From: Acidimicrobiaceae bacterium | GTDB lineage: Bacteria; Actinomycetota; Acidimicrobiia; Acidimicrobiales; Aldehydirespiratoraceae | Direction of reading: 5' to 3' | Assembly (NCBI GenBank): GCA_026708645.1 | Contig: JAPOUM010000004.1 | Location: forward strand, 33,760-97,759 | DNA: 64,000 bases | Part shown: piece after piece, positions 7,786 to 60,223 of the stretch | Position numbering within the stretch: position 1 is the first letter of the stretch | Layout of the letters: every line of letters begins with the position of its first letter | Translations under genes and position numbers: made by a program | Notes under the pieces: model-generated | Told to the model about the DNA's origin: nothing | What the model saw: the letters and a program-made list of their open reading frames with translations, nothing else | Database searches by the model: none

Positions 7786-8505
7786 TCAGCTGCGTTCCAG
7801 AACCGCCATGGAGCGCAGGCGCCGCTCGAGATGCGCTTCGATGGCTGCGGTCGCCAGCTCTGTCACCTCGCCGGCCGCGTCGTCTTCGCTGCGGCGCAGA
7901 GCCGTCCCGAGCTGCCCGCCCAGAATCTGACGCAGCAACTCCAAGGCGTCCTGGCTGATCGATCGACCCTGCCGGCAGCGCCGGCACAGCACCCCGCCCG
8001 CAGCGACGTCCAAAGCTTCGAACGGCCCGTCGGCGCCGCAGGCGACGCAGCTGTGCAGTTCGGGCTGGACGCCTTCCAGCATCAACAGCTTCAAGAAGAA
8101 GCCGGCCACGATCAGGCCGCTCTGCAAACTCTCCAGAGTGCCGAGCGCCCGCACTAGCATCACATGGCGCTGCGGGTCGCTCTCGGCTTCAGGCGCCAAC
8201 TGCTCGACGGCTTCCAGCATGGCGGAAGCTTGGGCGAACCTCGCCGGGTCGCTGCGCAGACCGACGAAACGGTCGATGGTCACCGCCTGCGCCAGCGTCT
8301 GCAGTTCGCTGCGCCCCTCATAGAGCTGCACCGACACATGACAGGCCGGCTCCAAGCGGGCGCCGAACTTCGAGCGGGTCCGACGCACCCCTTTGGCCAC
8401 GGCACGGACTTTGCCGTGGCCGAGAGTGTGAAGACTGACGATGCGGTCGGCTTCGCCCAGCTTCCAGGTGCGCAACACCACCGCCTCGTCGCGGTAGAGC
8501 GGCAC
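7786..8505 (-). CDS. recO: DNA repair protein RecO
   Basis: N-terminal OB-fold signature MPLYRDEAVVLRTWKLGEADRIV. Cys cluster CVACG...CRRC. Conserved recO-uppS-era neighbourhood. Confidence 0.85.
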   Translation of the reverse strand: MPLYRDEAVVLRTWKLGEADRIVSLHTLGHGKVRAVAKGVRRTRSKFGARLEPACHVSVQLYEGRSELQTLAQAVTIDRFVGLRSDPARFAQASAMLEAVEQLAPEAESDPQRHVMLVRALGTLESLQSGLIVAGFFLKLLMLEGVQPELHSCVACGADGPFEALDVAAGGVLCRRCRQGRSISQDALELLRQILGGQLGTALRRSEDDAAGEVTELATAAIEAHLERRLRSMAVLERS

Positions 8506-33790: not shown

Positions 33791-35317
33791 TTGGATCGCC
33801 GATCCGCTCGGCCTCTGAAGACGTTGCTCGCTGTCGACCTTCGGGGAATCCGCAAGGAGTTCCCGGGGGTCGTGGCGTGCGACGGCGCCAGTCTGTCGGT
33901 GCGGGCAGGCACCATCCACGCGCTGCTCGGAGAGAACGGGGCAGGCAAAACCTCGCTCGTGAACGTGCTCGGCGGCGTCTACCTGCCCGACGCCGGCGAG
34001 ATCCGGGTTCACGGCGCTCAGCGGCAATTCCACTCGCCCGCGGACGCGATCGCCGCCGGCATCGGCATGGTCCATCAAGAGTTCCGTCTGGTGCCCACCC
34101 TGACGGTGGCCGAGAACATCGCTCTCGGCTCGGCGCCGCGCTACCTGAACATGGCCCGGATCAACGAGCGGGTGTCGCGCCTGGCGTCCGCCTACTCGCT
34201 CGACGCCGACCCCACCCGGCCTGTGTGGCAGCTCTCCGTCGGCGAGCGACAGCGGGTGGAGATACTCAAGGCGCTGTGGCGCGACGCCGACGTTCTGGTG
34301 CTCGACGAGCCGACGGCGGTGCTCACGCCCACCGAAGCCGACGACTTGGCTCTGGCTCTGCGCGCCATGGCCGACCGCGGGCGGTCGGTGGTCTACATCA
34401 GCCACAAGCTCGACGAAGTCCTGTCCGTGTGCGACGAGGCGACCGTGCTGCGCGGCGGGGTCACTGTCGCGCAGCAACTCAGCCTGACCGGAGTCGAGCG
34501 ATCAGACCTGGCTCAGATGATGGTCGGCGAGGCGGCAGCCGAGACGCCGCGTCCGCCGGAGCAGGATTCCGGCGAAGTAGTCCTGGCACTGGAATCCGTC
34601 TCAGCGCTGAGCGATCGGGGCCTGCCTGCTCTGAGGTCGGTCGACCTTGATGTGCGTTCCGGTGAGATCGTGGGTGTCGCCGGGGTCTCCGGCAACGGCC
34701 AGAGGGAACTGGCAGAGGTCGTCGCGGGGCTGCGCCCGCTGACTTCGGGAACGGTGCGCCTGCTGGGTGACGACGTCGCCGGCTCGTCACCGAAGGCGCG
34801 CTCCCGCAGCGGGCTGGGCTATGTGCCCGAAGACCGTCTCGGCGTCGGCCTCGCCCCCCGCATGTCCGTCGTCGACAACTCAGTCATGCGCTCCTACCCC
34901 GCCATGCGCCGCGGCGTCATGCTGGACCTGAGACGCTGCGAGGATTTCTGCAAGCAGCTCGTCGACCGCTTCGGAGTGCGGGTGGGGCGCATGCACGACC
35001 ACGCCAGCGCGCTCTCCGGCGGCAACCTCCAGCGGCTGCTGCTGGGACGCGAACTCTCCGGCGAGCCGAGAATCCTGGTCGCGGCCCAACCCACGAGGGG
35101 TCTCGACGTGGCCGGCATCTCCGCCATTCAAGAACAGATCGTGGCGCAGCGCAATGCCGGTGTGGGCGTGCTGCTCGTGTCTGAGGATCTCGACGAACTG
35201 CTGGCTCTGTCCGATCGGCTGGTCGTGATGTACGAGGGTCGCATCGCGGCCCGACTCGACCCCAGAACCGCGACACGGGCCGAGGTGGGCGCGAAGATGG
35301 CCGGCAGCGGCGCATGA
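33791..35317 (+). CDS. ABC transporter ATP-binding protein, duplicated ATPase
   Basis: GENGAGKTS, VLDEPT, second cassette SGGNLQR. Confidence 0.9.
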   Translation: MDRRSARPLKTLLAVDLRGIRKEFPGVVACDGASLSVRAGTIHALLGENGAGKTSLVNVLGGVYLPDAGEIRVHGAQRQFHSPADAIAAGIGMVHQEFRLVPTLTVAENIALGSAPRYLNMARINERVSRLASAYSLDADPTRPVWQLSVGERQRVEILKALWRDADVLVLDEPTAVLTPTEADDLALALRAMADRGRSVVYISHKLDEVLSVCDEATVLRGGVTVAQQLSLTGVERSDLAQMMVGEAAAETPRPPEQDSGEVVLALESVSALSDRGLPALRSVDLDVRSGEIVGVAGVSGNGQRELAEVVAGLRPLTSGTVRLLGDDVAGSSPKARSRSGLGYVPEDRLGVGLAPRMSVVDNSVMRSYPAMRRGVMLDLRRCEDFCKQLVDRFGVRVGRMHDHASALSGGNLQRLLLGRELSGEPRILVAAQPTRGLDVAGISAIQEQIVAQRNAGVGVLLVSEDLDELLALSDRLVVMYEGRIAARLDPRTATRAEVGAKMAGSGA

Positions 35318-37017
35318 CCGAACCGACGAGCGCGACTCTGCACACCGTGTCACGCGGGCGCCCTCACTGGCATCGCGGCCTGACCCGACCCGTGCTGCAG
35401 AGACGCTCCGACGTGATTCCGGCGGTCCAAGCCTGCGCTTTCGTGATCGGCATCGCTGTCGCCTTGATAGCCGGAGCGCTGCTTCTGCTGACCGCTGGAC
35501 ACGACCCGGCCGAGGTCTACGGCCGAATGCTCGAATCGTCGCTGGGCGGCACGGATTCGATCTCGCGGACGCTGCTGCGAGCGACGCCTCTCGCTTTGTC
35601 GGGGCTGGCAGTGGCCGTCGCCGGCTCGATGGGCTTGTGGAACATCGGCGCCGAAGGCCAGATAATGGCAGGCGCCACGGTCGCTGCGGGCCTGGCGATG
35701 ACAGCGGGCGACCTGCCGGGACCGGTGCTCATCGTGGCGATGATCGCCGCCGGCGCAGTGGGCGGCACGGTGCTCATGGCGGTTCCGGCACTGGCCCGCG
35801 CCTACCTGGGCGTCAGCGAGATCATCACTACTCTGATGCTCGTCGAGGTTGCGATCCGCGTGGTGGAATGGCTCGAGACGGGACCGTGGAAAGACCCCGA
35901 CTCGCAGGGTTTCGCACTGATCGAGCCACTGCCCGAGCAGGCTGCGCTGCCGGGCCTGTTCGGCCGCTCGCACATCGGAGTCATCATCGCGGCAGCGCTG
36001 CTGGTGGTTTTCTGGCTCACCTTGTCACGAACTGCGTGGGGCTACGAACTGAGGCTGGCCGGATCGTCTCCAGCGACAGCGCGCTACGCGGGCATCTCAC
36101 TGCAACGCAAAGTGCTGATCGCGCTGGTGCTGTCGGGCGCGCTGGCGGGCCTGGCGGGGGCAGTCGAATTGACGGGGACAGCCACCCGTCTCGATCCAGG
36201 CCTGTCCAACGGATACGGCTTCGCCGGAATCATCGTGGCGGCATTAGCGCTGATGCGGCCCTCCGGCGTGGCGGCGGTGGCTTTCGTGTTCGGCGCGGTG
36301 CAGGTGGGCGGACAGTCCATTCAGACGCTCGGGGTGACGAGCTCGATCTCCACGATCCTGCAGGCCATGATCCTCGTCGGGGCGCTGGTCGCTTCCGTGC
36401 TGCTCAACTACCGAATCCGCTGGGTTCGTCCCGTAGGCCATGACACAGCAGACAGCGACAAAGCAAGCAACGGCACAGCAAGCGACGGCGCAGCGGGCGA
36501 CGGCACCGCCGCACCCATTCTGTCCACCGGTCAACCAGCATCCGGTAACACAGCAAGCAGCGGCACCGCAAGCGACGGCACCGCCGCACCCATTCTGTCC
36601 ACCGGTCAACCAGCATCCGGTAACACAGCAAGCAGCGGCACCGCAAGCGACGGCACCGCCGCACCCATTCTGTCCACCGGTCAACCAGCATCCGGTAACA
36701 CAGCAAGCAGCGGCACCGCAAGCGACGGCACCGCCGCACCCATTCTGTCCACCGGTCAGCCAGCATCCGGTAACACAGCAAGCAGTGACACCGCAAGCGA
36801 CGGCACCGCGGGTGACAGCACTGCAGCGGCGACATCTCCGTCGGATGCGGCGGCGGCTAGTGACGCCGCGTCGCAGGCTGAGGACGAGGACGGTGGCGAG
36901 AGCGAGACTGAAGCCGGGGACGGGGGCGAAGCTGAGAGCGAGGCCGGGGACGAGGACGAGAGCGAAGACGGGGGCGATTCCGCAGGCACCCCAACGAACC
37001 CGGGTGTCGTCGAATGA
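35314..37017 (+). CDS. ABC transporter permease with a roughly 190-aa repetitive, acidic C-terminal tail
   Basis: Permease core with NIGAEGQ. The tail has 4 copies of a 25-aa unit (TAAPILSTGQPASGNTASSGTASDG), then an Asp/Glu/Gly-rich end. Confidence 0.85.
   Translation: MTEPTSATLHTVSRGRPHWHRGLTRPVLQRRSDVIPAVQACAFVIGIAVALIAGALLLLTAGHDPAEVYGRMLESSLGGTDSISRTLLRATPLALSGLAVAVAGSMGLWNIGAEGQIMAGATVAAGLAMTAGDLPGPVLIVAMIAAGAVGGTVLMAVPALARAYLGVSEIITTLMLVEVAIRVVEWLETGPWKDPDSQGFALIEPLPEQAALPGLFGRSHIGVIIAAALLVVFWLTLSRTAWGYELRLAGSSPATARYAGISLQRKVLIALVLSGALAGLAGAVELTGTATRLDPGLSNGYGFAGIIVAALALMRPSGVAAVAFVFGAVQVGGQSIQTLGVTSSISTILQAMILVGALVASVLLNYRIRWVRPVGHDTADSDKASNGTASDGAAGDGTAAPILSTGQPASGNTASSGTASDGTAAPILSTGQPASGNTASSGTASDGTAAPILSTGQPASGNTASSGTASDGTAAPILSTGQPASGNTASSDTASDGTAGDSTAAATSPSDAAAASDAASQAEDEDGGESETEAGDGGEAESEAGDEDESEDGGDSAGTPTNPGVVE
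36499..36798 (+). repeat. 75-bp in-frame tandem repeat, 4 full copies (copies 1-3 identical)
   Basis: Unit starts at 36499, 36574, 36649 and 36724. Partial related copies lie on both flanks (about 36460-36815). Confidence 0.95.
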
Positions 37018-37970
37018 CTGAAACGGCGGTCATCGGCCTGCTCGTGGCGACCGTGCAGTTCGCCACGCTGATCTATTTGGCGGCGCTGGGCGAGCTCATC
37101 GTGGAACGCTCAGGCGTGCTGAACCTCGGAGTGGAGGGCATGATGGCCATGGGGGCCGTCTCGGGCTTCATCATGGCGCTGGCCACTGACAGCCCGTGGA
37201 TCGGATTCGCTTTCGCGGCTCTCGTCGGCATGGCTGTCGCGGGCATTCACGCAGTGGTGAGCGTCGTGATGGGCGCCGGTCAGGTGGTGTCCGGCCTGGC
37301 TGTCACGATCGGAGGTCTGGGACTCGCCGCCTTCATCGGCCAGGACGCCGTGCGCGAGCGCGCCGACGCCGTGTTCACTGACATGAGCATCGCACCCCTT
37401 GCCGACATTGCTTGGATCGGTCCGATCCTGTTCGATCAGCCGCCGGTCGTCTACCTGGCTGTGGTCTTGGGCGGCGCAGTCTGGTTCGTCTTGAATCGCA
37501 CCCGCCTGGGGCTCGCCTTGCGTGCGGTCGGAGAATCAGCGTCGACGACGGACTCGGTCGGCCATTCGGTGACGCTCCTGCGCTCAGGCGCCGTGCTGGT
37601 CGGCGGCGCTTTCGCGGGGGCCGCCGGTTCCTTCTTGTCGCTCTACATGGCCGCAGGCTGGACCGAGGGCCTCATCGCCGGCCGCGGCTGGATAGCTGTG
37701 GCACTGGTCATCTTCGGAGCGTGGCGACCCGGGCGACTGGCCGCCGGTTCGCTGCTTTTCGGTTTCACGCTGGCTTTGCAGCCCAGAGTCCAGACCTTCG
37801 ACCTGGAAATCCTCGGGCTGCAGGTGAACACGATCTCGCCTGCGCTGCTCGGCATTCTGCCGTTCTTGCTGACCGTCGTCGTGCTCATCGCCATCAGTTT
37901 CCGCGCGAGGCATCGACCCAACCCCGCACCGGCAGCACTGACGATCCCCTACCGCCGCGAAGAACGCTGA
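37014..37970 (+). CDS. ABC transporter permease (second subunit)
   Basis: NLGVEGM motif, multi-pass. 4-nt overlap with the upstream permease. Confidence 0.85.
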   Translation: MTETAVIGLLVATVQFATLIYLAALGELIVERSGVLNLGVEGMMAMGAVSGFIMALATDSPWIGFAFAALVGMAVAGIHAVVSVVMGAGQVVSGLAVTIGGLGLAAFIGQDAVRERADAVFTDMSIAPLADIAWIGPILFDQPPVVYLAVVLGGAVWFVLNRTRLGLALRAVGESASTTDSVGHSVTLLRSGAVLVGGAFAGAAGSFLSLYMAAGWTEGLIAGRGWIAVALVIFGAWRPGRLAAGSLLFGFTLALQPRVQTFDLEILGLQVNTISPALLGILPFLLTVVVLIAISFRARHRPNPAPAALTIPYRREER

Positions 37971-38062
37971 CGAACCACCACCCCGCGCCGTCGTCACTGA
38001 CCCACACATGAGTATCAGTCACGCCGGCCGCGAAGAACGCTGACGAACCACCACCCCGCGCC
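37955..38062 (+). repeat. 35-bp direct repeat x2, 73-bp period, first copy spans the permease stop codon
   Basis: ccgcgaagaacgctgacgaaccaccaccccgcgcc occurs at 37955-37989 and 38028-38062. Confidence 0.95.
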
Positions 38063-38280
38063 TCGAGCGGCACCCCAACCGAAAGCCTGCACTCACCGGA
38101 ACGCCGCCAACAACACCGACAGACTGCGGCTGCGGCTCTAAACCTGACGACGAACACGACAAGCACAAGACCTTCGACCGCCAGACCGCTAGAACGCCGA
38201 CGAACCACGACGCCGCTCGCCCATGGACACAGACCCGACGCTCGCGGCGTGACGCTCGAAACGCTTGATCAGTCGCGACC

Positions 38281-38395
38281 ATGCGACACCGCGGAAGAGA
38301 TTCGGCCGTCAACCTGTGGATGAACCCCGGACAATGCCTCAATACCGTCTACCACACTGGCACCGCGGAGGAGACTCGGCCGTCGACCTGTGGAT
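38281..38395 (+). repeat. roughly 41-bp direct repeat x2, 74-bp period, containing cctgtggatgaacc
   Basis: cgcggaagagattcggccgtcaacctgtggatgaaccccgg versus cgcggaggagactcggccgtcgacctgtggatgaacctcgg. Confidence 0.9.
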
Positions 38396-38450
38396 GAACC
38401 TCGGGATTGCTGTGAACAACCCTGTGCAAATAACCACAGATTCCGCTTGA

Positions 38451-38526: not shown

Positions 38527-39306
38527 ATGATGCGAAAGCTGCTGCCGGAACCTGCGTCCGATGTGGATCCGATGGAGCTCTACCCCTCTCTGGCGCGACC
38601 GAGACCGGCGAGCAGGCCTTGGCTGATGCTCAACATGATCTCGGCGGCTGACGGCGCCAGCGCCATCAACGGAGTCAGCGAACCGTTGGGCAACCCGGCC
38701 GATCAAGCCGTGTTCTCGGCGGTGCGAGCCTGCGCCGACTGGATAGTGGCCGCTGCCGACACCGTGCGAATCGAGCGCTATCAGATACCTCGCCCGTCTC
38801 AAGCCGCTCGACGAGCACGACTCGCAGCGGGCCGGCCCGAACAGCCCGGACTGGCCGTGGTGAGCGGCAGCCTCGACCTCGCCTCAGACCTGCCGCTCTT
38901 CGCCGATCAGCGCCCGGGTGAGCGGCTGCCGCTGATCCTCACGGGTCGAAGCGCCGACCCCGAAGCGGTAGAGGCGCTCAGCGGCGTGGCTGAGGTGGTG
39001 AGACTGGCCTCGCCTCAGCCTCAACCGGCTGAGATCATGGCGGAACTGCAGCGCCGCGGCGCAGACGTGGTGCTGAGCGAAGGGGGGCCCACGTTCAACG
39101 GGCAGCTCGCCGACGCGGCAATGATCGACGAGCTGTGCCTGTCGGTGGCGCCGCTGCTGGCGGGAGGCGACAGCACGAGGATCGTTCACGGATCGCGGCA
39201 GTCGCTGCCGCTGGAACTGCGCATGGATCATCTGCTCGAAGAATGCGGCACGCTGTTCGTCCGCTACCTGTGCAGCGGCCGCCGCAAGCCCGGCCCGAAG
39301 CAGTAG
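38527..39306 (+). CDS. RibD C-terminal domain / dihydrofolate-reductase-like reductase family protein
   Basis: NMISAADGA ... GGPTFNGQL ... DELCLSVAPLLAGG pattern. Confidence 0.7.
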   Translation: MMRKLLPEPASDVDPMELYPSLARPRPASRPWLMLNMISAADGASAINGVSEPLGNPADQAVFSAVRACADWIVAAADTVRIERYQIPRPSQAARRARLAAGRPEQPGLAVVSGSLDLASDLPLFADQRPGERLPLILTGRSADPEAVEALSGVAEVVRLASPQPQPAEIMAELQRRGADVVLSEGGPTFNGQLADAAMIDELCLSVAPLLAGGDSTRIVHGSRQSLPLELRMDHLLEECGTLFVRYLCSGRRKPGPKQ

Positions 39307-39388
39307 CCGCACAGCCCTGTCGTTGCCATTCGACCGGCCCGATGCGGGACAGGCCGCAAGCCCGGCCCGAAGCAGTAGCCGCACAGCC
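39281..39388 (+). repeat. 36-bp direct repeat x2, 72-bp period, first copy spans the stop codon of the reductase gene
   Basis: gccgcaagcccggcccgaagcagtagccgcacagcc occurs at 39281-39316 and 39353-39388. Confidence 0.95.
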
Positions 39389-52359: not shown

Positions 52360-52628
52360 CCCATCTCGCCTGACATGAACACAGCATGAGAGCTTCTGTC
52401 GGGGCTGCTCGCTCCCGGTGTAGTTACTCTCCCGATGTTATTACTGATGCCAGTAGTTGCTGGCGCAGCCTCGACCTGCCGCCACCCCCGTCGAAAAGCG
52501 CTCTTGGTGTCATTGCTGATGTCAGTAGTTGCTGATGCCAGTAATGACTGGCCGGGCGCATCAACGCTCATGCCTTGTGGCGCATCAACGCTTGATGCTT
52601 GGTGGCATATCAGTGCTGGCCGGGCGCG

Positions 52629-54056
52629 TCAGGGTGGTGGCGACAGCGCTTCCGTGAGCGCTCGAATTTCGGTTAGAGCGGATTGCAGGTCGTCGGCTGC
52701 CTCGGCGGCTAGGACGGCCGGGGGCGGGAGATTGTCGATGTCTTCGAGGCTGTCGTCGCGCAGCCAGAACAGGTCGAGGCTGACCTTGTCCCGGGCCGTC
52801 AACTCGTCGTAGCTGTAGCTCTTGAAACGCTCCGACGGTCGGCGCAAATGGCGTTCGCCGGTTTTGTAGCAGGCTACGAAGTCGTCGAGGTCGGCTCGGG
52901 TGAGCGGGTTCTGTTTGAGGGTGAAGTTCTTGTTGGTGCGCATGTCGTAGACCCACAACTCTCGTGTCCAGGCCTGATCGGCGCCCTCTCGGCGACGGAA
53001 GAACAACACGTTGGCCTTCACGCCCTGGGCGTAGAAGATGCCTGTCGGCAGGCGCAGCAGCGTGTGGACTTCGCAGTCGTGCAGCAGTCGGCGACGGATC
53101 GTCTCACCCGCCCCCGCTTCGAACAGCACGTTGTCGGGCACCACCACGGCGGCTGATCCGCCCACCTTGAGCACGCCGACGACATGCTGCACGAAGTTGA
53201 GTTGCTTGTTGCGGGTGACGGCCCAGAAGTCTTCGCGCTCGTAGCTGTCCGACGAGGACCGCCCGAAAGGCGGATTGGTCAGCACCATGTCGAAACGCCG
53301 TCCGGGATCGGCTCGCAGGGCGTCGTCGACATGCACCGGCGAGTCCGACTCGGGGCTCTCGATGCCGTGCAGCAGCAGGTTCATGGCGCACAGCCGCGCC
53401 GGCAGGTCCGCTATCTCCCAGCCGGTGAAAGCCCCCGAGCGCAGCAGTGCCACCTGGTCGGGCTCCAGAGGTGTGAAACGCTCGATGATCGACCGGTAGG
53501 CGCCCAAGAAGAACCCGCCGGTGCCGCAGGCCGGGTCGCAGATGCGGTCGCCGGGCTCGGGGGCCATCACGTCGACGATCGCTGAGATCAGCGCTCTCGG
53601 CGTGAAGTACTGGCCGGCGCCTCGGGCGCCTTCTTGAGCGGTCTTCTCGATCAGGCCCTCGTAGGCGTCGCCTTTGAGGTCGGCTTCGTAGCTGAGCCAT
53701 TCGTGCTTGTCGATGAAGTCCTTGATGAGCTGCTCCAGCTTGGCGGGGGTCTGGATCCGGTTGCGGGCCTTGTGGAACACCACCCCCAACATGTCGTCGC
53801 CGGCGCCCAGCGCCGCCAAGGTCTCGCCGTAGTGGTCTTCCAGTTCGGCGCCCGACCGGGCGAGCAGCGACTGCCAGTCATGCTCGATCGGCACCACCCG
53901 CTCACCGCCCAGCAGCTCATGCTGCTCGTAGGCCATCTTCAAGAAAAGCAGGTAGGTGAGCTGCTCCACATAGTCGCCGTAGGACAGCCCGTCGTCGCGC
54001 AGCACGTCGCAGAAATCCCAAAGCCGCTGCACCAAAGCCTTCGAATCGTTGCTCAC
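52629..54056 (-). CDS. hsdM: type I restriction-modification methyltransferase subunit
   Basis: HsdM_N-like LWDFCDVLRDDGLSYGDYVEQLTYLLFLKM, SAM motif DPACGTGGFF, catalytic LTNPPFG. GTG 54056 overlaps the upstream TGA as GTGA. Confidence 0.9.
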   Translation of the reverse strand: MSNDSKALVQRLWDFCDVLRDDGLSYGDYVEQLTYLLFLKMAYEQHELLGGERVVPIEHDWQSLLARSGAELEDHYGETLAALGAGDDMLGVVFHKARNRIQTPAKLEQLIKDFIDKHEWLSYEADLKGDAYEGLIEKTAQEGARGAGQYFTPRALISAIVDVMAPEPGDRICDPACGTGGFFLGAYRSIIERFTPLEPDQVALLRSGAFTGWEIADLPARLCAMNLLLHGIESPESDSPVHVDDALRADPGRRFDMVLTNPPFGRSSSDSYEREDFWAVTRNKQLNFVQHVVGVLKVGGSAAVVVPDNVLFEAGAGETIRRRLLHDCEVHTLLRLPTGIFYAQGVKANVLFFRRREGADQAWTRELWVYDMRTNKNFTLKQNPLTRADLDDFVACYKTGERHLRRPSERFKSYSYDELTARDKVSLDLFWLRDDSLEDIDNLPPPAVLAAEAADDLQSALTEIRALTEALSPPP

Positions 54057-54400
54057 GGCCGATGCACTCCGGGGTATGGGTTCGGGTTGGCGACAGACCA
54101 TTCGTGCAGATGGAGCGCCAAGGCGTGGGGCAGTGCTGAGCCGCGCGGGTGCCGGCGCTTGCTGACGAAGACGACGACCGCGCGCGGTGAGCCCGCGGCG
54201 AGCCGATCGTTGGCGATTTTGGCGAAATCCGCAAAATTCTCAGTCACGATGATCCGTTGCTGCTCGACGGCGATCTCGTAGATGTCGGAGTCAGTGCTGC
54301 CCCCGAGCCCCGCTTCGATAACGCTGAGCGCCTCATGTCCTAACGCAGCCAGTTCTGCCGCCGCAATTCGTGGCAGCATCTCGTCGATCAGCCATCTCAA
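54053..54400 (-). CDS. DUF5615-type PIN-like putative toxin
   Basis: MRWLIDEMLP...LGHEA...D.DI...A..QQRIIVTENFADF matches the DUF5615 pattern as I recall it. 4-nt overlaps on both sides. Confidence 0.65.
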   Translation of the reverse strand: MRWLIDEMLPRIAAAELAALGHEALSVIEAGLGGSTDSDIYEIAVEQQRIIVTENFADFAKIANDRLAAGSPRAVVVFVSKRRHPRGSALPHALALHLHEWSVANPNPYPGVHRP

Positions 54401-54819
54401 GACGAAAGCAATCGTTCACGCTGGCGAGCTTGGCGGCGGACCTCCTCCGCGGCTCGCTCATCCGCTTCGATCAACGCGTCAATCTCCTGAGGGAACGAAG
54501 CGTAGAAGTCTGCCGCCAGCATCACCGACGCTGCCGCTAGGCCGGTCTCGGCGGCAAGGTTCTCGACACGCTCCATTCCCCGGCCCGACGCAGCGGCCAG
54601 ATCACGCACTACCTCCCATACGTCGGGACCGCCCGCGAGCGCAGCGCGCCGACCAACGGGGCCGTCACGATAAACGACACCTGCGAAACGGCGCGTCTTG
54701 AGGCCCTCGTCGAGCATGGAGGAGACCAGCTGTGTGATTGAGGCGCCAACGGCGCGACTCTCGGCCTCGACGCGTTCCAACAGTTCCTCGGGAAGACGGA
54801 ATGATGTGGGCCGCGGCAT
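54397..54819 (-). CDS. putative antitoxin, RHH (CopG-like) N-terminus plus DUF433-like region
   Basis: FRLPEELLERVEAESRAVGASITQLV is RHH-like. The downstream GVVYRDGPVGRRAALAGGPDVWEVV is DUF433-like. DUF433/DUF5615 pairs are a known predicted TA arrangement. Confidence 0.5.
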   Translation of the reverse strand: MPRPTSFRLPEELLERVEAESRAVGASITQLVSSMLDEGLKTRRFAGVVYRDGPVGRRAALAGGPDVWEVVRDLAAASGRGMERVENLAAETGLAAASVMLAADFYASFPQEIDALIEADERAAEEVRRQARQRERLLSS

Positions 54820-54876
54820 AAAAACTCCGTAGCGTGAGCAAGCTACACCATACTACAACACGGTTGTCATAAATTG

Positions 54877-55460
54877 CGAATTGCGCAGTGGTCGAGGCCA
54901 GTGGGCCTGTTGCTTCTTGAACTTCGGCCAGTCTTTCAGCCAGAAAGTCCAGTCGCGCTGGAGTCGCAGTCAGCGAACCTGTTGCTTCCAGCCCGGTCGT
55001 CAACACGCAGCACGGTCGCGTGCATCGTCGTGAGGTGGCCGAAGTCAGCGAACCCTGTCGATCACTGTCAGCGGCGAGACGATGACGGCGGGTGTGCCCC
55101 GTCGCGAGGTGGCCGAAGTCAGCGAGCCACGGCGGGGTGCGGTCGGGGTGTTGGCTGGGCAAGGACGGCGTACATCGTCGTGAGGTGGCCGAAGTCAGCG
55201 AGCCATCTTCTTCGTCATTGAGTGGCGCGCCGGGTAGGGGCGTACATCGTCGTGAGGTGGCCGAAGTCAACGAGCCTGTTGTCTCCTGTCGAAGCACTCG
55301 CGGGCTTTCGCCAGCGCTGCGGTTGCGCTGCAGTCGCGCTGTGGTCGAGGCCAGTGGGCCTGTTGTCTTGCCTCTAGTGGAGTCAATAAACCTTCGTCCA
55401 GCAGAAACCTTCGTCCAGCAAGTTGCGCTGTGGTCGAGGCCAGTGGGCCTGTTGTCTCTC
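54877..55460. repeat. 8-unit repeat-spacer array (35-38 bp related repeats, 72-88 bp period, unrelated spacers)
   Basis: Central units at 55018, 55091, 55168 and 55240 share gtcgYgaggtggccgaagtcaRcgaRcc. Outer units at 54881, 55336 and 55424 share gcgcWgtggtcgaggccagtgggcctgttg. The unit at 54951 is intermediate. Sequences between units do not resemble each other. Confidence 0.85.
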
Positions 55461-55547
55461 TTGTTGGGGCGGGATTCGCCCGAGTGCGTCCGGCCGGGTC
55501 TCTGGCCGGGAGGCCGGTGTCGGCTACCGCCATGCGGCGAGCGGGGT

Positions 55548-56954
55548 TCACCACAGCGTGGCCGGGGCCGGGTCTCTGGCTCTGGTGCTGACGCTTGTAC
55601 GGCTTGTTTTGCTTTCGGGTCGGGCCGGTGATCGCCCGCGACGCAGTGGCGGTTCCGGTGCTGGTGGCCGCTCGGCGGCGCACGCCGGCCCGCAACGGCC
55701 GTGATCCGCTGACCCGACACGACCCGCTCCCCGAGGTGGATGGTCGTCGGCGTGGGCCGGCCCGTAGCGGGGCTGCAAAGCGGGATTGTCGGGCGGGTGC
55801 AGCGTGTGAGTGCCGTCGCTGTGGGTCTCAATGAACCAGTCGTGATGATGGATTTTGTGGTGACAGTTCCAGCACACCATCACCATGTTCTTGACGCTGG
55901 TCTCCCCGCCCTTGGAATACGGGACGATGTGATGGGCTTGGCACATGCTCGGCGGCGCCCCGCAGTGGAAGCAACCGCCGTAATCGGTCAGCAGGGCTTG
56001 CCATTGCGTGTCGGTGACCGTGCGCCGTGACCGGCTGCGCCAGATCGCGTCACCCGAACGGTCGTACACCAGACCGGTCCAACGCGCGTTGCACGACAAC
56101 TCCTCCAGCACCTCCGGCGGCAGCCGTGAACCGTCTGAGAGTTCAGCGACCAACTCGCCGGTGGCGTCGTCAACGTGCGCTACCAGCGTGATGTCAGCCA
56201 CCCAACCAGCGCCACCGTCGGACCGAACGCCGTCAGCAGCGACCGCAGGGGCGGTGGCGCGGTCGAGGGCGTCGGCCATGCATTGTGCGAACTGGCGTCG
56301 ATCCGCTTTGGGGAGTTTCCGGTCGTTGCCGAGCAACTGTTCTGCGATGTGGCGTATCCGGTTGTGGATGCGTGTGCCGGTGATCTTGTCGAACTCGCCA
56401 TGCAAAGCGACCATGCCGTCCTCGCCGTCATAGAACCTCAAATACCGCTTAGCACGCTGACGGGCATGCTCAGAGGCGCCGTCGTCGTCTTGCTGGGCGG
56501 TGATCCAGCGTTGCGCGGCGCGCCTGAACTGCTCGGGACGCATCGACGAGGCTTGCCCCAGCAACGAATCATCGCCTGCTACCGCATCAGAGCCGGTTTT
56601 GGTGATCGCCTCGGCGAGCCGTCGGGCGTTCGCTTGGGGCACTTCGCCGGCTTGCACAGCGTCTCGCAGCTTCGGGACTTTGTGCAACGCTTGCGCGGTC
56701 TTGACCTGACTGCGGGCTTCGCTGTGAGACAACCCGGCAGACACGGCCAGCACTTCCGCGCCGCCGTCGCCGTGACGCTCCCGTGCGGCGATCAGCTCCG
56801 CGGCGGCGCTCTGGAACGCCGTGCCTGCGGCCATGAACACACGAGTCTGCTCCAAGGCGGCGCGCAGCTCATCGGACGCCACACCGCCGTCGCGCAATGT
56901 CGCGAGCATCCTGTTGGCCGCGGCGACCGCTTGTCGAGCATCTGCTAACACCAT
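55548..56954 (-). CDS. DUF222 + HNH endonuclease (REP13E12-type protein)
   Basis: HNH core CQAHHIVPYSKGGETSVKNMVMVCWNCHHKIHHHDW with the long alpha-helical DUF222-like N-terminal part. The true C-terminus is uncertain. Confidence 0.8.
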   Translation of the reverse strand: MVLADARQAVAAANRMLATLRDGGVASDELRAALEQTRVFMAAGTAFQSAAAELIAARERHGDGGAEVLAVSAGLSHSEARSQVKTAQALHKVPKLRDAVQAGEVPQANARRLAEAITKTGSDAVAGDDSLLGQASSMRPEQFRRAAQRWITAQQDDDGASEHARQRAKRYLRFYDGEDGMVALHGEFDKITGTRIHNRIRHIAEQLLGNDRKLPKADRRQFAQCMADALDRATAPAVAADGVRSDGGAGWVADITLVAHVDDATGELVAELSDGSRLPPEVLEELSCNARWTGLVYDRSGDAIWRSRSRRTVTDTQWQALLTDYGGCFHCGAPPSMCQAHHIVPYSKGGETSVKNMVMVCWNCHHKIHHHDWFIETHSDGTHTLHPPDNPALQPRYGPAHADDHPPRGAGRVGSADHGRCGPACAAERPPAPEPPLRRGRSPARPESKTSRTSVSTRARDPAPATLW

Positions 56955-57261
56955 GAACAGTAGTATAGGTCATGGGTGCGACAAAGCAACCTCTTTCAAG
57001 TAAAAATCTTTAATATCGGGCATCTTTCTTGCCAGCCATGCGAGCATTGGCCAGCGCCGGTTCCGGGGTGCCCCACCCTCAACCGCTGACAGCCGCCAGC
57101 TCCACCTCGACCACAAACACGCAGGCCAGAAAACGCTGTCTCGCACGAGCGATGCGACGTCGGCGGGGTGGCTGACCACGATGAGCCGTCACACCGGCCT
57201 GAAAACGCAGTTCCGTGCGACCGGTCATTGACGGGACTGTCGCTAGCTGTGATAGCTTGTC

Positions 57262-57325
57262 GCCAATCCCCCCAGTCGCTTCTGGTGGCTGGGCGAAGGC
57301 CCGCTTCGGCGGGCCTTCGTGCTTT
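57262..57325 (+). ncRNA. candidate small RNA, copy 1 (promoter-like element, 9-bp hairpin, intrinsic terminator)
   Basis: TTGACG 57228-57233. Extended -10-like TGaTAGCTT 57250-57258. Hairpin CCCAGTCGC/GTGGCTGGG 57271-57293. Terminator GAAGGCCCGC-ttcg-GCGGGCCTTC 57295-57318, then GTGCTTT. Confidence 0.3.
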
Positions 57326-57477
57326 ACCAGCCCCGGGCTTGAAGAGTCCGCTGCGAACCAAAACTAGTACACCGAGATCGCGCCTTAGCGAGGCTTCTGG
57401 GGTTGTCGTTGCAGCGGGCTAGCCGCGCACAAGCGAGGCGAGCCATCCGCAAGTGCCCGAAGAGACAGTCAAACCCT

Positions 57478-57488: not shown

Positions 57489-57537
57489 GCTCACGGACGG
57501 TCATTGACGGGACTGCCACTAGCTGTGATAGCTTGTC

Positions 57538-57601
57538 GCCAATCCCCCCAGTCGCTTCTGGTGGCTGGGCGAAGGCCCGCTTCGGCGGGCCTTCGTGTTT
57601 T
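57538..57601 (+). ncRNA. candidate small RNA, copy 2, with terminator abutting the NYN stop codon
   Basis: TTGACG 57504-57509. Hairpin 57547-57569. Terminator 57571-57594 followed by GTGTTTT. The NYN stop codon (57600-57602) overlaps the T-run. Confidence 0.3.
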
Positions 57602-58256
57602 ACCAGCCTCTGGGCTTGCGAATTGGCCCCGTCCGGTCATACACGACGTCCGGCAGCTGCGACCCCTCAAGCGCTCGATTCGGAATCTGACGATAGAACA
57701 GGCAGCCAACCTCTTTGAGTCTGCGAGACCGGCGGTTGCGGGGATGCGGGTTGAAGACGCCCACCCGGATGCCCATCTCAGACTGAGCGACCTCAATCGC
57801 CTGGGCCAGATCCGAGTCGTTGCTGAAGACGACAGCCGTCTCGCAACGGTGCTTGCAGGCGTCCAGCAGCAGGTAGGTGGCCAGATTGACATCGGACCCT
57901 TTCTCTTCGGTCCTGAGCACTTCGACGGTTCGTGACTCGCGGGGTTGGGGCTTCGCGAGTGGAAGGCGAACTGCTCGAGTCACGAAGTGCCCGTACTGGA
58001 TCTCCATCAACGGCAGCGCGGCAAGGGCACGCAGGTAGGCGTCCTGGCGATCCGGACGCTGAGGGTCATCCTCGCGAGCGTCCACCCGAGCCGTGAAGTA
58101 ACGGATCTTGGCAATGTTGTCGCCGGGCAGCAGTCGTCGGCAGAGCGCCTCGAGGTCGAGCCACTTGTATGGCGTCTCCTTGACAGCGCCGTAGTAGAAG
58201 TTGAACCCGTCAACGTAGACGACGGTCTGGGGCCGCCTTTTCTCCATGCCAGGCAT
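57600..58256 (-). CDS. NYN domain (PIN-like) nuclease family protein
   Basis: VVYVDGFNFYYG ... IRYFTA ... EEKGSDVNLATYLLLDA ... VVFSNDSDL is the typical NYN/LabA acidic-residue pattern. ATG 58256 lies 1 nt after the hsdS TGA (58260-58258). Confidence 0.75.
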   Translation of the reverse strand: MPGMEKRRPQTVVYVDGFNFYYGAVKETPYKWLDLEALCRRLLPGDNIAKIRYFTARVDAREDDPQRPDRQDAYLRALAALPLMEIQYGHFVTRAVRLPLAKPQPRESRTVEVLRTEEKGSDVNLATYLLLDACKHRCETAVVFSNDSDLAQAIEVAQSEMGIRVGVFNPHPRNRRSRRLKEVGCLFYRQIPNRALEGSQLPDVVYDRTGPIRKPRGW

Positions 58257-58257
58257 G

Positions 58258-58935
58258 TCAGCGGCTTGGATCGGCCGTCTGAGCGGCTGTGATTCGTTCT
58301 AGCAGGGCTGATGCGGGCTCGTCGGTCGGGTCCTGCGCCACGAGCCGCCCTGCGAAGGCCTCAGCCAGCACACTGCGACGCAAAGCCTCGATCCTGGCCT
58401 GAGCAGCCGTGATCGCAGCACTGGCAGCATCCAAACGCGAAAAATACTCCTCAATCGCAGCAACAATCCGCCCCTGCTCCGCAAACGGCGCAACGGGAAT
58501 AATTTGCTCAAGGATCGGCCCTGACTTGGCTCATGTGTGAGAACCGGTACCACCTTCGACAGCTAACTTGATCCAGTCTCGAAATTCGGGTGAGGACAGA
58601 TACTGCGCAATGAAGCCAGCCATTCGCGGATGTCGAGGCCGAAAGACCAGATACTCGGTCGATGCGATTTGTGGGACATCTTCCGCCTGACCGACAACCC
58701 AGACACGATTGATACGCGGATTGATCTTGCAGAGCAGCACATCACCTTGCTCAACGCCGCGCTTGCCGCTCTTGACTAGGACTCCATCAGTCCTCTCTGG
58801 ACACCCCGAGGGAAACGCCGGCACGCTATACAGGTCGTAAATGACTCCAGGTTCTGGTATGAGTTGTCCACGGACCTCAACCCCAAGATCGCCGAGTTCG
58901 GCTGAGGCCCAGCCGGGTGGGAGAACGCTGGTCAT
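58258..58935 (-). pseudogene. hsdS: half-size type I specificity subunit (single TRD + conserved helix) with an in-frame TGA
   Basis: N-terminal MTSVLPPGWASAELGDLG... TRD (134 codons). TGA at 58533-58531. The same frame continues AKSGPILEQIIPVAPFAEQGRIVAAIEEYFSRLDAA...AFAGRLV.QDPTDEPASALLERI, which is the HsdS conserved region. I translated it codon by codon. Confidence 0.75.
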
Positions 58936-59010: not shown

Positions 59011-59388
59011 TCAGGCGACTTGGTCTGAGTTGATGAGGACGCTACCGCCGGGCTGGACATCGATGTTCAGGTTATGGCCTGCTAGCAGCGCCATGCCTAC
59101 CAGCGGGATTGAGCCAGAAGCGTCGACTTGGATGAGCCTCATTTGGCCGTCCCATAGGACGAAGGCGCCATGAGCCAACAGGGTTGTGATGCTGCCGTCG
59201 GCCAGGATGAATATCGAATCGCCGACTTCGGGAAGCTCCATCTCTGCCACGACTGTCGGCGGCAGCGTCAGAAACTCGGTGAAGCCGGTATCGACCACGG
59301 CTTCGATCTCAAGTGTCTGCCCTGCTGGGCCGCTTACGGGCAGTTCGACGACAGCTTCCAAGCGATCGTTGACGACTCCGGCGATCAC
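59011..59388 (-). CDS. retropepsin-like (clan AA) aspartic protease, about 125 aa
   Basis: Catalytic VVDTGFTEFLTLP (D-T-G). LLGMALL-type C-terminal motif (LVGMALLAGHNLNID). GTG 59388 overlaps the upstream TGA as GTGA. Confidence 0.7.
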   Translation of the reverse strand: MIAGVVNDRLEAVVELPVSGPAGQTLEIEAVVDTGFTEFLTLPPTVVAEMELPEVGDSIFILADGSITTLLAHGAFVLWDGQMRLIQVDASGSIPLVGMALLAGHNLNIDVQPGGSVLINSDQVA

Positions 59389-59792
59389 GGTGCCCGTCGC
59401 GAAGGTCGGGCGCCGTGGCCCCAGACGGCGTTGTAACCGACTCGGAGCAGCCACACGTTGACGGCATCCGGATGCGCGGCTCGCAGCGACGCAGCCGCCA
59501 CTCCGAGATCATCGGCCAGAGCCCAGCCTCCGCTGTCCACATCAATGGCCATGTACTCGCCTACATGCGCCGCCGCGAAATGCGGGCGGATGTCGCGCTC
59601 GTAGAGCTCCTTGCCGAGCCGGGCGATCTTCTCGTTTGAGAGCGTCGACTTTTCAAGGGTGCCCGGCGACAGCGCCTCCTCCTTCGGGAGCGTCGGCACC
59701 CGGCGACAGCGCCTCCCCTTCGGGAGCGTCGGCACCCGATGAGCGCGCACAGACGCCGCCTCCAACTCAGATTCGACGCTGCCTTTGATCAT
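59385..59792 (-). CDS. small protein, paralog B of the protease-associated pair
   Basis: 135 aa. Shares HRVPTLPKG..EALSPGT and ARLGKELYERDIRP...EY.AIDV.SGGWAL.DDL.VAAASLRA.HPDAVNVWL.RVG with the upstream paralog. ATGA overlap at 59789-59792. Confidence 0.6.
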   Translation of the reverse strand: MIKGSVESELEAASVRAHRVPTLPKGRRCRRVPTLPKEEALSPGTLEKSTLSNEKIARLGKELYERDIRPHFAAAHVGEYMAIDVDSGGWALADDLGVAAASLRAAHPDAVNVWLLRVGYNAVWGHGARPSRRAP

Positions 59793-60223
59793 GCCGGCAG
59801 TATCCGTCTAGGGCTCAAGATGTGACCCATAACCAGATGGCCGACCCGGATCAGCCACACATTGACAGCATCAGGATGCACCGCACGCAACGACGCAGCA
59901 GCCACCAAGAGATCATCGGACAACGCCCAGCCACCACTGCTCACATCGATGGCGACATATTCATCTTGATGCGCATCCTCCACCTGAGGCCGGATGTCAC
60001 GCTCGTAGATCTCCTTGCCGAGCCGGGCGGTCTCCTCTCGCGGGAGCGTCCGCTTCTTGTGGGTGCCCGGCGACAGCGCCTCCCCCTTCGGGAGCGTCGG
60101 CACCCGATGAACGCGCACAGGCACCGCCTCCCGGGACTCCAAGCCCTGCTGGGAAGCCTGGTCCGCACGAAGCCCGGGGTCTGCCACCGCAGCAGCGCCG
60201 TCTGGATCAACCATAGTGCTCAT
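59789..60223 (-). CDS. small protein, paralog A of the protease-associated pair
   Basis: 144 aa. The C-terminal roughly 70 aa resemble the small partner proteins I recall next to retropepsin-like proteases in cyanobacteria and archaea. Confidence 0.6.
   Translation of the reverse strand: MSTMVDPDGAAAVADPGLRADQASQQGLESREAVPVRVHRVPTLPKGEALSPGTHKKRTLPREETARLGKEIYERDIRPQVEDAHQDEYVAIDVSSGGWALSDDLLVAAASLRAVHPDAVNVWLIRVGHLVMGHILSPRRILPA

Follow-up and report, generated by a model that had tools for sequence, protein, structure and literature searches.

A CRISPR-like repeat-spacer array of sponge-associated Acidimicrobiia is best explained as the largest local member of a genome-wide class of micro-arrays

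What is an array of direct repeats and unique spacers that looks like a CRISPR locus (short palindromic repeats, clustered and regularly interspaced) and has no cas genes beside it? The question is raised by a stretch of 64,000 nucleotides (the window, in whose numbering coordinates are given unless another locus is named) from contig JAPOUM010000004.1 of the Acidimicrobiaceae bacterium assembly GCA_026708645.1. Between a gene for a DUF222-HNH endonuclease and one for an RHH antitoxin, the window holds eight repeat units, u1 to u8, whose CRISPR-like geometry had been pointed out in a preliminary description made from the letters alone. The array is best explained as one of a lineage-specific class of micro-arrays that recur across the genome of a sponge-associated Acidimicrobiia species, and as the largest of them locally; we hold this descriptive account with high confidence.

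All eight related repeats reported in the preliminary description are present, as direct repeats between 54880 and 55457 (Table 1). In a common register the units start at 54880, 54952, 55027, 55101, 55177, 55249, 55333, and 55422, with unit-to-unit spacings of 72, 75, 74, 76, 72, 84, and 89 bp, and all of them open with (G/A)T(C/T)G(C/T)G in that single register. The body common to the eight units is 25–28 nt long, and the consensus that fits all of them is GYGMDGKRGYCGMRGYCARYGRRCC. Two repeat types can be distinguished. The R0 type, found in u1, u7, and u8, is 36 nt long (GTCGCGCTGTGGTCGAGGCCAGTGGGCCTGTTGTCT; GTCGCGC...TGTTGTCT) and contains the 5-bp hairpin AGGCC-AGTG-GGCCT; the central type, found in u3–u6, is 38 nt long (GGCGTACATCGTCGTGAGGTGGCCGAAGTCAGCGAGCC), and its four copies are indeed nearly identical (87–100% over 38 nt). 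That the flanking copies are the hairpin variant holds for u1, u7, and u8; u2 is a hybrid of both types. Relative to R0, the central register begins 10 nt further 5′ and stops 8 nt earlier. Among the central copies, u6 alone is followed by the R0 tail TGTTGTCT, which is missing after u3–u5, as duplication in a register shifted by 10 nt would predict; this identifies u6 as the source copy for the duplications in the shifted central register.

The spacers measure 34–39 nt, or 48 and 53 nt where small tandem duplications arose: when the triplication of 11–12 bp and the 17-bp duplication are removed, the spacings of 84 and 89 bp both become 72 bp. They are unrelated to one another, as had been proposed, and they are also unrelated to the flanks. 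A stretch of 60 bp rich in AT adjoins u1. Structurally, the locus thus offers what is asked of a CRISPR array, namely at least three near-identical direct repeats of 23–47 nt (here four 38-nt copies and four related ones) and unique spacers of uniform length; it lacks nearby cas genes, a recurring repeat family, and spacer turnover.

The repeat is strictly local. Neither variant occurs anywhere else in the window, where shuffles led us to expect 0 chance matches; a profile built from the units, run over ~265 kb of the clade, recovered the eight units and nothing else; and a degenerate core pattern gave two single chance matches among 185,579 species genomes, while JGI metagenomes gave none. 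The repeat falls into no CRISPR repeat family of Rfam and was found nowhere else in these searches, and its locality leads us to reject a dispersed family of the MIRU (mycobacterial interspersed repetitive unit) or REP (repetitive extragenic palindromic) kind, one of the alternatives that the preliminary description had raised. Five of the spacers have no exact match in IMG/VR, where the viruses of this host are probably poorly sampled, megablast against phages found no match, and none of the spacers matches local DNA. Sensitive blastn against phages and plasmids returned two weak matches and a 22-mer at E=0.6, in which positions 54992–55013 of the u2–u3 spacer match a Mycobacterium phage primase/helicase gene (Keshu, Pixie, ShedlockHolmes) at 22/22 positions and which we take to be a chance match. 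The spacer search proposed in the preliminary description thus yielded only this 22-mer and the weak matches.

Nine independent assemblies, short-read and long-read, carry the same array, which rules out an assembly artefact. By exact-protein look-ups, the locus belongs to metagenome-assembled genomes of sponge-associated Acidimicrobiia, among them GCA_026709905.1, several ENA sponge metagenomes, and a long-read contig of 2.48 Mb. In strain L003, precisely two units are missing, u5 (72 bp) and u7 (89 bp), and u1 has the 13-nt deletion; strain L005 lacks the u7 unit. The differences between strains are whole repeat-plus-spacer units, copy-number variation of the sort expected of MIRU and VNTR (variable-number tandem repeat) loci. 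No novel spacer was found among the nine assemblies, only internal deletions of units, and leader-proximal gain of spacers between strains, as expected of a CRISPR array, was not seen among them.

The array is non-coding. A minus-strand frame, 54665–55831, stays open across its whole length, and the earlier suspicion that this frame is not a protein was borne out: neither it nor two plus-strand open reading frames (ORFs) across the array have a Pfam match, and its GC content at third codon positions (GC3, 0.60) is lower than at second positions (GC2, 0.68), whereas real genes here show GC3 of 0.68–0.84 above GC2 of 0.43–0.54. Codon-position GC across the array is flat (0.61/0.61/0.68), and with periods of 74, 75, and 76 bp any reading frame is broken. 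A structured-RNA reading was dropped as well, since folds of the array and of single repeats are at the level of shuffles: the whole array gave z of −0.07 and −0.59 on its two strands, and single repeats folded no better than their shuffles. Rfam with permissive filters, run over 54000–56500, gave only chance matches and no CRISPR-DR family.

We scanned the window and further DNA for short-range direct repeats separated by unrelated sequence, with pair distances of 20–400 bp. Same-species DNA of 127 kb yielded 60 repeat-spacer pairs, 22 of which fell at a period of 70–76 bp (binomial p ~5e-23 versus uniform expectation), at a density of about one locus per 7 kb; unrelated GC-rich control DNA (66 kb) yielded one pair only. 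Four sister structures, A to D, and a perfect tandem repeat of the same period class lie in the window itself (Table 1). Structure A has a second copy at 38027, 36/36 identical to the first and separated from it by a 37-nt spacer, followed by decayed copies at 38103 (21/36) and 38184 (26/36), and the two copies of structure C (39281/39353) are 100% identical around a 36-nt spacer. The 75-bp tandem repeat forms a 150-aa C-terminal extension of an ABC permease. Elsewhere in the same species, pairs were found in L018 at 7759 (repeat/spacer 36/36), 5912 (36/37), and 3290, in L026 at 11805 (36/36), and in the 22 kb of L027 at nine places with periods of 72–74 bp (4372, 11289, 11915, 13586, 13746, 15691, 15778, 18578, and 18887); relatives have them too, in L019 at 7413 (37/38) and in L017 and L023. 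In a related species (L022), the permease orthologue has 417 aa, versus 567 aa in the window, and lacks the 75-bp repeat, and the gap between the permease and RibD_C genes is ~60 bp in a related species versus 557 bp of units in the window, which shows the units to be lineage-specific additions of DNA. With the same geometry at many loci and a different repeat at each, the question shifts from this one locus to a process acting genome-wide.

Two further observations concern these loci. The short-read contigs L020 and L021, which cover 38.0–39.6 kb of the window, begin and end exactly inside 36-nt repeat copies, so that such structures fragment metagenome assemblies of the organism. In a related species, L019 carries at 7908–8122, upstream of a thiolase gene, four 26-nt repeats (GTGCAAATATGTCACCGTGTGTCACC) spaced by 62–64 bp, a different geometry that is possibly an operator array.

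The class has several properties in common. Every locus has its own repeat, and no second locus was found for any of them in the ~265 kb. The intervening segments are unrelated to the flanks regardless of how well the repeats are conserved (z ~0), and they have no direct or inverted template within ±1 kb on either strand; they are therefore neither decayed tandem copies nor products of a local template switch. Decayed tandem duplication was rejected, spacer-versus-neighbour similarity being at chance level. The GC content of the inserts is host-like (63%), and in young pairs with 100%-identical repeats the boundaries between repeat and spacer are sharp. A local segment is thus found duplicated around a spacer-sized, non-local insert, as is expected of a neo-CRISPR locus. 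At four loci the stop codon of a gene lies within the repeat: 37954 (the permease), 39281 (RibD_C), L027 11915 (an HNH paralogue), and L027 13819 (a gene on the minus strand). The gene stays intact with the first copy, and later copies decay with distance. Register shifts of 10–13 nt between successive duplications occur in the main array and in L027 (13733/13746 and 15765/15778).

Repeat length across the loci is 31–45 nt, with a mode of 36 nt in ~10 of 19 loci, and spacer length is 26–42 nt. The sum of the two stays within 71–76 (45/26, 44/30, 39/33, 38/34, 36/36–37, and 32/41), and the standard deviation of the period, ~1.2 bp, is much tighter than the spread of either part. A start of the form GNCGY is found in 7 of ~22 repeats, both array types included, and may resemble GTCGC and GTCGT, with which actinobacterial CRISPR repeats typically begin. 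A GAAG motif, judged post hoc, was discarded, as it is not significant after correction for multiple motifs.

These properties lead us to infer events of insertion plus duplication. Each event would duplicate a target of ~36 nt and separate its two copies by ~36 nt of non-local DNA unrelated to them: the insert would be joined to staggered cuts ~36 nt apart, and filling of the gaps would give repeat-spacer-repeat. With ~36 nt duplicated and ~36 nt inserted, the added unit comes to 72–76 bp. In the main array, u1, u2, u7, u8, and the ancestor of u6 would have formed first, as an older array of R0 type; the ancestor of u6 would then have expanded a second time, in a register shifted by 10 nt, which added u3–u5 with three new spacers. 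Unequal recombination between repeats would later have removed or added whole units, and tandem duplications of 11 and 17 bp would have arisen inside two spacers. To our knowledge, Cas1-Cas2 spacer integration is the only reaction with such an outcome and a spacer-sized insert, and ectopic integration is for that reason taken as the likeliest mechanism. Our favoured reading, held tentatively, is accordingly that the array is non-coding DNA built by iterated insertion-duplication, most likely through ectopic ("neo-CRISPR") Cas1-Cas2 integration. Off-target integration by Cas1-Cas2 that spawns new arrays is documented in Escherichia coli, according to papers (bioRxiv 10.1101/148544, PMC6698737, PMC7054753) that cite the original study (Nivala et al. 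2018), and an enrichment in CRISPR-Cas genes is reported for the Actinobacteriota that live in symbiosis with sponges (PMC11706023). The naming of Cas1-Cas2 as the enzyme, which draws on the form of the product, is itself doubtful.

Several observations weigh against this reading. A variable repeat length with a constant sum of repeat and spacer fits Cas1-Cas2 poorly, as a ruler for repeat length predicts the opposite. One locus per ~7 kb far exceeds the ectopic integration that has been reported. No cas gene is present in the window, as the preliminary description had stated and as Pfam annotation of its whole length confirmed, and no Cas domain was seen in any other locus examined, which together cover ~5% of the 2.48-Mb genome. 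The spacers lack matches in the viral (five spacers, exact), phage, plasmid, and local sequences searched, the repeats match no CRISPR-DR family of Rfam, and the GNCGY start is missing from most examples in L026 and L027. Copies of R0 type stand at both ends of the array, so that its growth was not simply polar.

Part of this evidence points instead to an undescribed process that does not involve Cas proteins, be it an integrase, a template-switching polymerase, or copying at a fixed distance, with a fixed period of ~72–74 bp (about seven helical turns) and a sliding boundary between repeat and spacer. The tightness of the period compared with the lengths of repeat and spacer speaks for it, as do register shifts of 10–13 nt, close to one helical turn; the extreme density of loci, the repeats that differ from locus to locus, the lack of cas genes in the window and the other loci, and the perfect 75-bp tandem array at 36399–36848 are also in its favour. 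However, no known enzyme or structure works in this way, the commonest partition (36/36) and the enriched GNCGY start look like the work of an integrase with a site and a ruler, and the net gain of DNA relative to related species favours insertion over copying onto existing sequence. We regard such a process as less likely than the favoured reading, to which it is a serious rival.

A genuine CRISPR that is orphaned or decaying, its cas genes elsewhere or lost and the other two- and three-copy structures unrelated to it, is improbable. Four near-identical 38-nt repeats with unique spacers of 34–38 nt satisfy the usual detectors, the repeat starts with GTCG(C/T)G, the R0 type has its small hairpin, an AT-rich stretch lies next to u1, and the deletions of units between strains resemble those of CRISPR arrays. 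Yet the 64 kb contain no cas gene, the repeat does not recur in the species genomes, the JGI metagenomes, or the clade, there is no match to a CRISPR-DR family or to any spacer, the nine assemblies differ in spacers by deletions only, and diverged repeat types stand at both ends. Above 20 sister structures of the same period with other repeats would, moreover, be left unexplained. For a canonical, functional CRISPR, against which the preliminary description had itself listed arguments, we find no support, given the lack of cas genes, Rfam or spacer matches, further repeat copies, and spacer turnover.

An ordinary MIRU/VNTR minisatellite would consist of tandem units of 72–76 bp whose repeat halves were kept alike by gene conversion and whose other halves drifted. 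Similar periods are known from actinobacterial VNTRs, strains differ in copy number, a perfect tandem array of 75 bp lies nearby, and the L027 18578 pair keeps 56% identity in its flank. Against this, repeat pairs that are 100% identical still have spacers of random similarity and sharp boundaries, Tandem Repeats Finder (TRF) detects no 72–76-bp unit-length array at the locus, whole units show no head-to-tail similarity, and the units form no dispersed homologous family in the window, the other loci, or the ~265 kb. The repeat/unique-spacer pattern was therefore rightly set apart from a simple minisatellite in the preliminary description, since TRF finds no array of unit length and the spacers stand at z ~0 against their neighbours; we consider a minisatellite very unlikely.

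The preliminary description had also considered an iteron or operator field for the adjacent RHH protein. A set of sites bound by the RHH or the HNH protein, whether as operators, iterons, or a centromere, is a reading which has in its favour the position of the array directly upstream of the RHH gene and a spacing of ~7 helical turns that would put the sites on one face of the DNA, but which is hardly credible, because RHH homologues with 76–90% identity in five other contexts (L010–L014) have 74–198 bp of upstream DNA with no array and no match to the core at 3 mismatches, the RHH gene has a small palindrome of its own at 54855–54867, HNH paralogues share no DNA downstream of the ORF, and the same geometry occurs with unrelated repeats beside unrelated genes. 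Stacked remnants of attachment (att) sites, likewise suggested there, are contradicted by the regular geometry of 72–76 bp and the missing integrase.

Returning to insertion-duplication as the preferred reading, the array is most likely a neutral footprint, and we found no evidence of a role as an immune locus or in regulation. More generally, it is possible that a genome-wide process, so far undescribed, operates in the Acidimicrobiia symbionts of sponges, writing ~36 nt of non-local DNA and duplicating a target of ~36 nt with a period of 72–76 bp. Recurring at the same sites, this proposed process could, with no greater assurance, give rise de novo to arrays that are CRISPR-like, have arbitrary repeats, and in many cases start at stop codons, its agent being either a promiscuous adaptation integrase or a non-Cas enzyme or structure.

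Table 1. Positions of the array, its units, and related or neighbouring features in the window.
Feature	Position	Strand	Remarks
Whole array, eight units	54876–55460	+	Non-coding; between DUF222-HNH stop codon and RHH start codon
u1, R0 type, ATTGCGCAGTGGTCGAGGCCAGTGGGCCTGTTGCTT	54880–54915	+	13-nt deletion in strain L003
u2, hybrid, GTCGCGCTGGAGTCGCAGTCAGCGAACCTGTTGCTT	54952–54987	+	5′ end and tail of R0 type, core of central type
u3, central, 38 nt	55017–55054	+	92% identity to u5
u4, central, 38 nt	55091–55128	+	87% identity to u5; first 10 nt (5′) diverged
u5, reference for central 38-nt type, GGCGTACATCGTCGTGAGGTGGCCGAAGTCAGCGAGCC	55167–55204	+	Unit and spacer missing from strain L003
u6, central, then R0 tail TGTTGTCT	55239–55284	+	Repeat part 55239–55276, 97% identity to u5
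u7, R0 type, GTCGCGCTGTGGTCGAGGCCAGTGGGCCTGTTGTCT	55333–55368	+	Unit and spacer missing from L003 and L005
u8, R0 type, GTTGCGCTGTGG...TGTTGTCT	55422–55457	+	
11-bp tandem triplication of R0 repeat 5′ end	55314–55347	+	Accounts for u6–u7 spacing of 84
17-bp tandem duplication in u7–u8 spacer	55388–55420	+	Accounts for 89 = 72+17
75-bp perfect tandem repeat, ~six units	36399–36848	+	In frame in 3′ extension of permease ORF 35314–37017
Sister structure A	37954–38219	+	36-nt repeat with stop codon of ABC permease ORF 37014–37970
Sister structure B	38287–38404	+	Two copies (38287/38361) of 40–44-nt repeat, period 74
Sister structure C	39281–39388	+	36-nt repeat with stop codon of RibD_C gene (38527–39306)
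Sister structure D	52429–52536	+	Older pair (52429/52501), 82% identical, period 72, between Fic gene and hsdM end
DUF5615 (PIN-like) toxin, RHH partner	54053–54400	−	Then hsdM, 52629–54101
RHH (CopG-like) antitoxin	54397–54819	−	Follows array; homologues elsewhere without array
DUF222-HNH endonuclease	55548–56954	−	Precedes array in transcription order; >15 paralogues per genome

The neighbourhood of the array is transcribed from the minus strand throughout, in the order hsdR, small ORFs resembling toxin-antitoxin genes, hsdS, an NYN-domain gene, DUF222-HNH, the array, the RHH antitoxin, the DUF5615 toxin, hsdM, two Fic genes, and miaB-miaA-dapF-hflX. Housekeeping genes (dnaG, recO, uppS, era, ksgA, metG, lexA, ABC transporters) make up the rest of the window together with a second restriction-modification pair at 96–2590, an Eco57I-like N6 methylase (96–1799) followed by a XhoI-family endonuclease (1844–2590). 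The hsdS gene is fragmented in the window (58258–58935) and intact, with 456 aa, in L003 (5365–6735); the restriction-modification system of the window's strain may be inactive or altered. At 59385–60223, two adjacent paralogous small genes of 135 and 144 aa share 79% DNA identity over 276 nt and have internal 49-nt repeats.

Paralogues of the DUF222-HNH gene in the window and in L017, L018, L019, L026, and L027 encode 448–816 aa, with a hypervariable central insertion containing repeats of 66, 72, and 201 nt, and several are followed downstream by degenerate copies of their own 3′ end. We rejected the array as part of a REP13E12/DUF222-HNH element: the DNA homology between paralogues stops inside the ORF, ~190 nt before the stop codon, and none was found in the array. 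The units resemble HNH 3′ ends to no significant degree, and a protein-based scan of JGI metagenomes for HNH relatives gave only two distant short contigs. Spanning the HNH 3′ end, a 15-nt exact repeat (GGCCGGGTCTCTGGC) at 55492–55506 and 55566–55580, its copies spaced by 74 bp, has the appearance of an old pair of this class that has decayed, on the array's other side. In the interval from the HNH start to the end of the NYN gene, a 116-nt direct repeat (57222–57337 and 57498–57613; 96% identical, 276 bp apart) carries in each copy the perfect 26-nt palindrome CGAAGGCCCGCTTCGGCGGGCCTTCG; it is also present in L003. Just upstream of the RHH start codon lie the palindrome ACAAC-ACG-GTTGT (54855–54867) and a GTAGC...GCTAC hairpin (54829–54846), candidates for the operator and the 5′ untranslated structure of the toxin-antitoxin operon.

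The interest of the locus lies in the pervasive 72-bp signature of insertion-duplication that it exposes rather than in the single array. If the proposed process is real, the genome records dozens of independent births, and the early growth, of CRISPR-like arrays from ordinary sequence, births that bear on how CRISPR arrays originate and for which rare events in engineered E. coli have so far been the only example. It would also amount to a mutational process that builds intergenic DNA in steps of 72 bp, lengthens the ends of genes, and inserts blocks of 24 codons into them. A promiscuous adaptation integrase as the agent would offer a natural, large-scale view of the origin of CRISPR arrays; an agent unrelated to Cas would represent insertion mutagenesis of a new class, by which intergenic DNA is enlarged; and a period constraint independent of Cas would make the mechanism unknown biology. 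Detectors that rely on structure alone will call such loci in these abundant sponge symbionts, inflating counts of "orphan CRISPRs" and of spacers in sponge metagenomes.

Among known systems, canonical CRISPR arrays, such as the DR locus of Mycobacterium tuberculosis with its 36-nt repeat and type III-A system, share with the locus described here direct repeats of 36–38 nt, unique spacers of 34–38 nt, a period of 72–76, a GTCG start, and the loss of units between strains. In contrast to them, the present array has no cas genes within 64 kb, a repeat found nowhere else, neither matches nor turnover of spacers, repeats of two types whose registers are shifted, the older of which stands at both ends, and many sister loci with other repeats, some inside genes or across stop codons. 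Mycobacterial MIRU and ETR (exact tandem repeat) minisatellites are intergenic, vary in copy number, and have periods of 51–58 and 69–79 bp. The array resembles them in being actinobacterial and intergenic, in a similar period, in strain-variable copy number, and in the position that the class and these minisatellites often take at gene ends; unlike MIRUs, which are a dispersed family with whole units alike, only half of each unit repeats here, and its sequence is specific to the locus.

False-CRISPR elements comprise tandem repeats, STAR-like elements, simple repeats, and an "unknown" class (Zhang & Ye 2017, PMC5294841), and are recognised by low spacer diversity, tandem structure detectable by TRF, or a dispersed signature such as that of STAR (PMC5294841). 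They have in common with this locus a repeat-spacer appearance without companion cas genes, and a structure-only detector would call the array a CRISPR; its spacers, however, are fully diverse, TRF is negative, and the repeat is not dispersed, which leaves the "unknown" class at best.

The array works most like a neo-CRISPR locus. In the account of neo-CRISPR (Nivala, Shipman & Church 2018, Nat Microbiol 3:310) given by the papers that cite it, a repeat-length stretch of the genome is duplicated around an unrelated insert of spacer length, the new repeat is local and specific to its site, and small arrays can grow there, all as in the structures described here. The E. coli events are, according to the same citing papers, rare and made by overproduced Cas1-Cas2 with a canonical duplication of 28 bp, whereas the present genomes hold more than 20 natural loci in ~130 kb, with duplications of 31–45 nt, a fixed period, and no Cas1-Cas2 in the ~5% of the genome covered.

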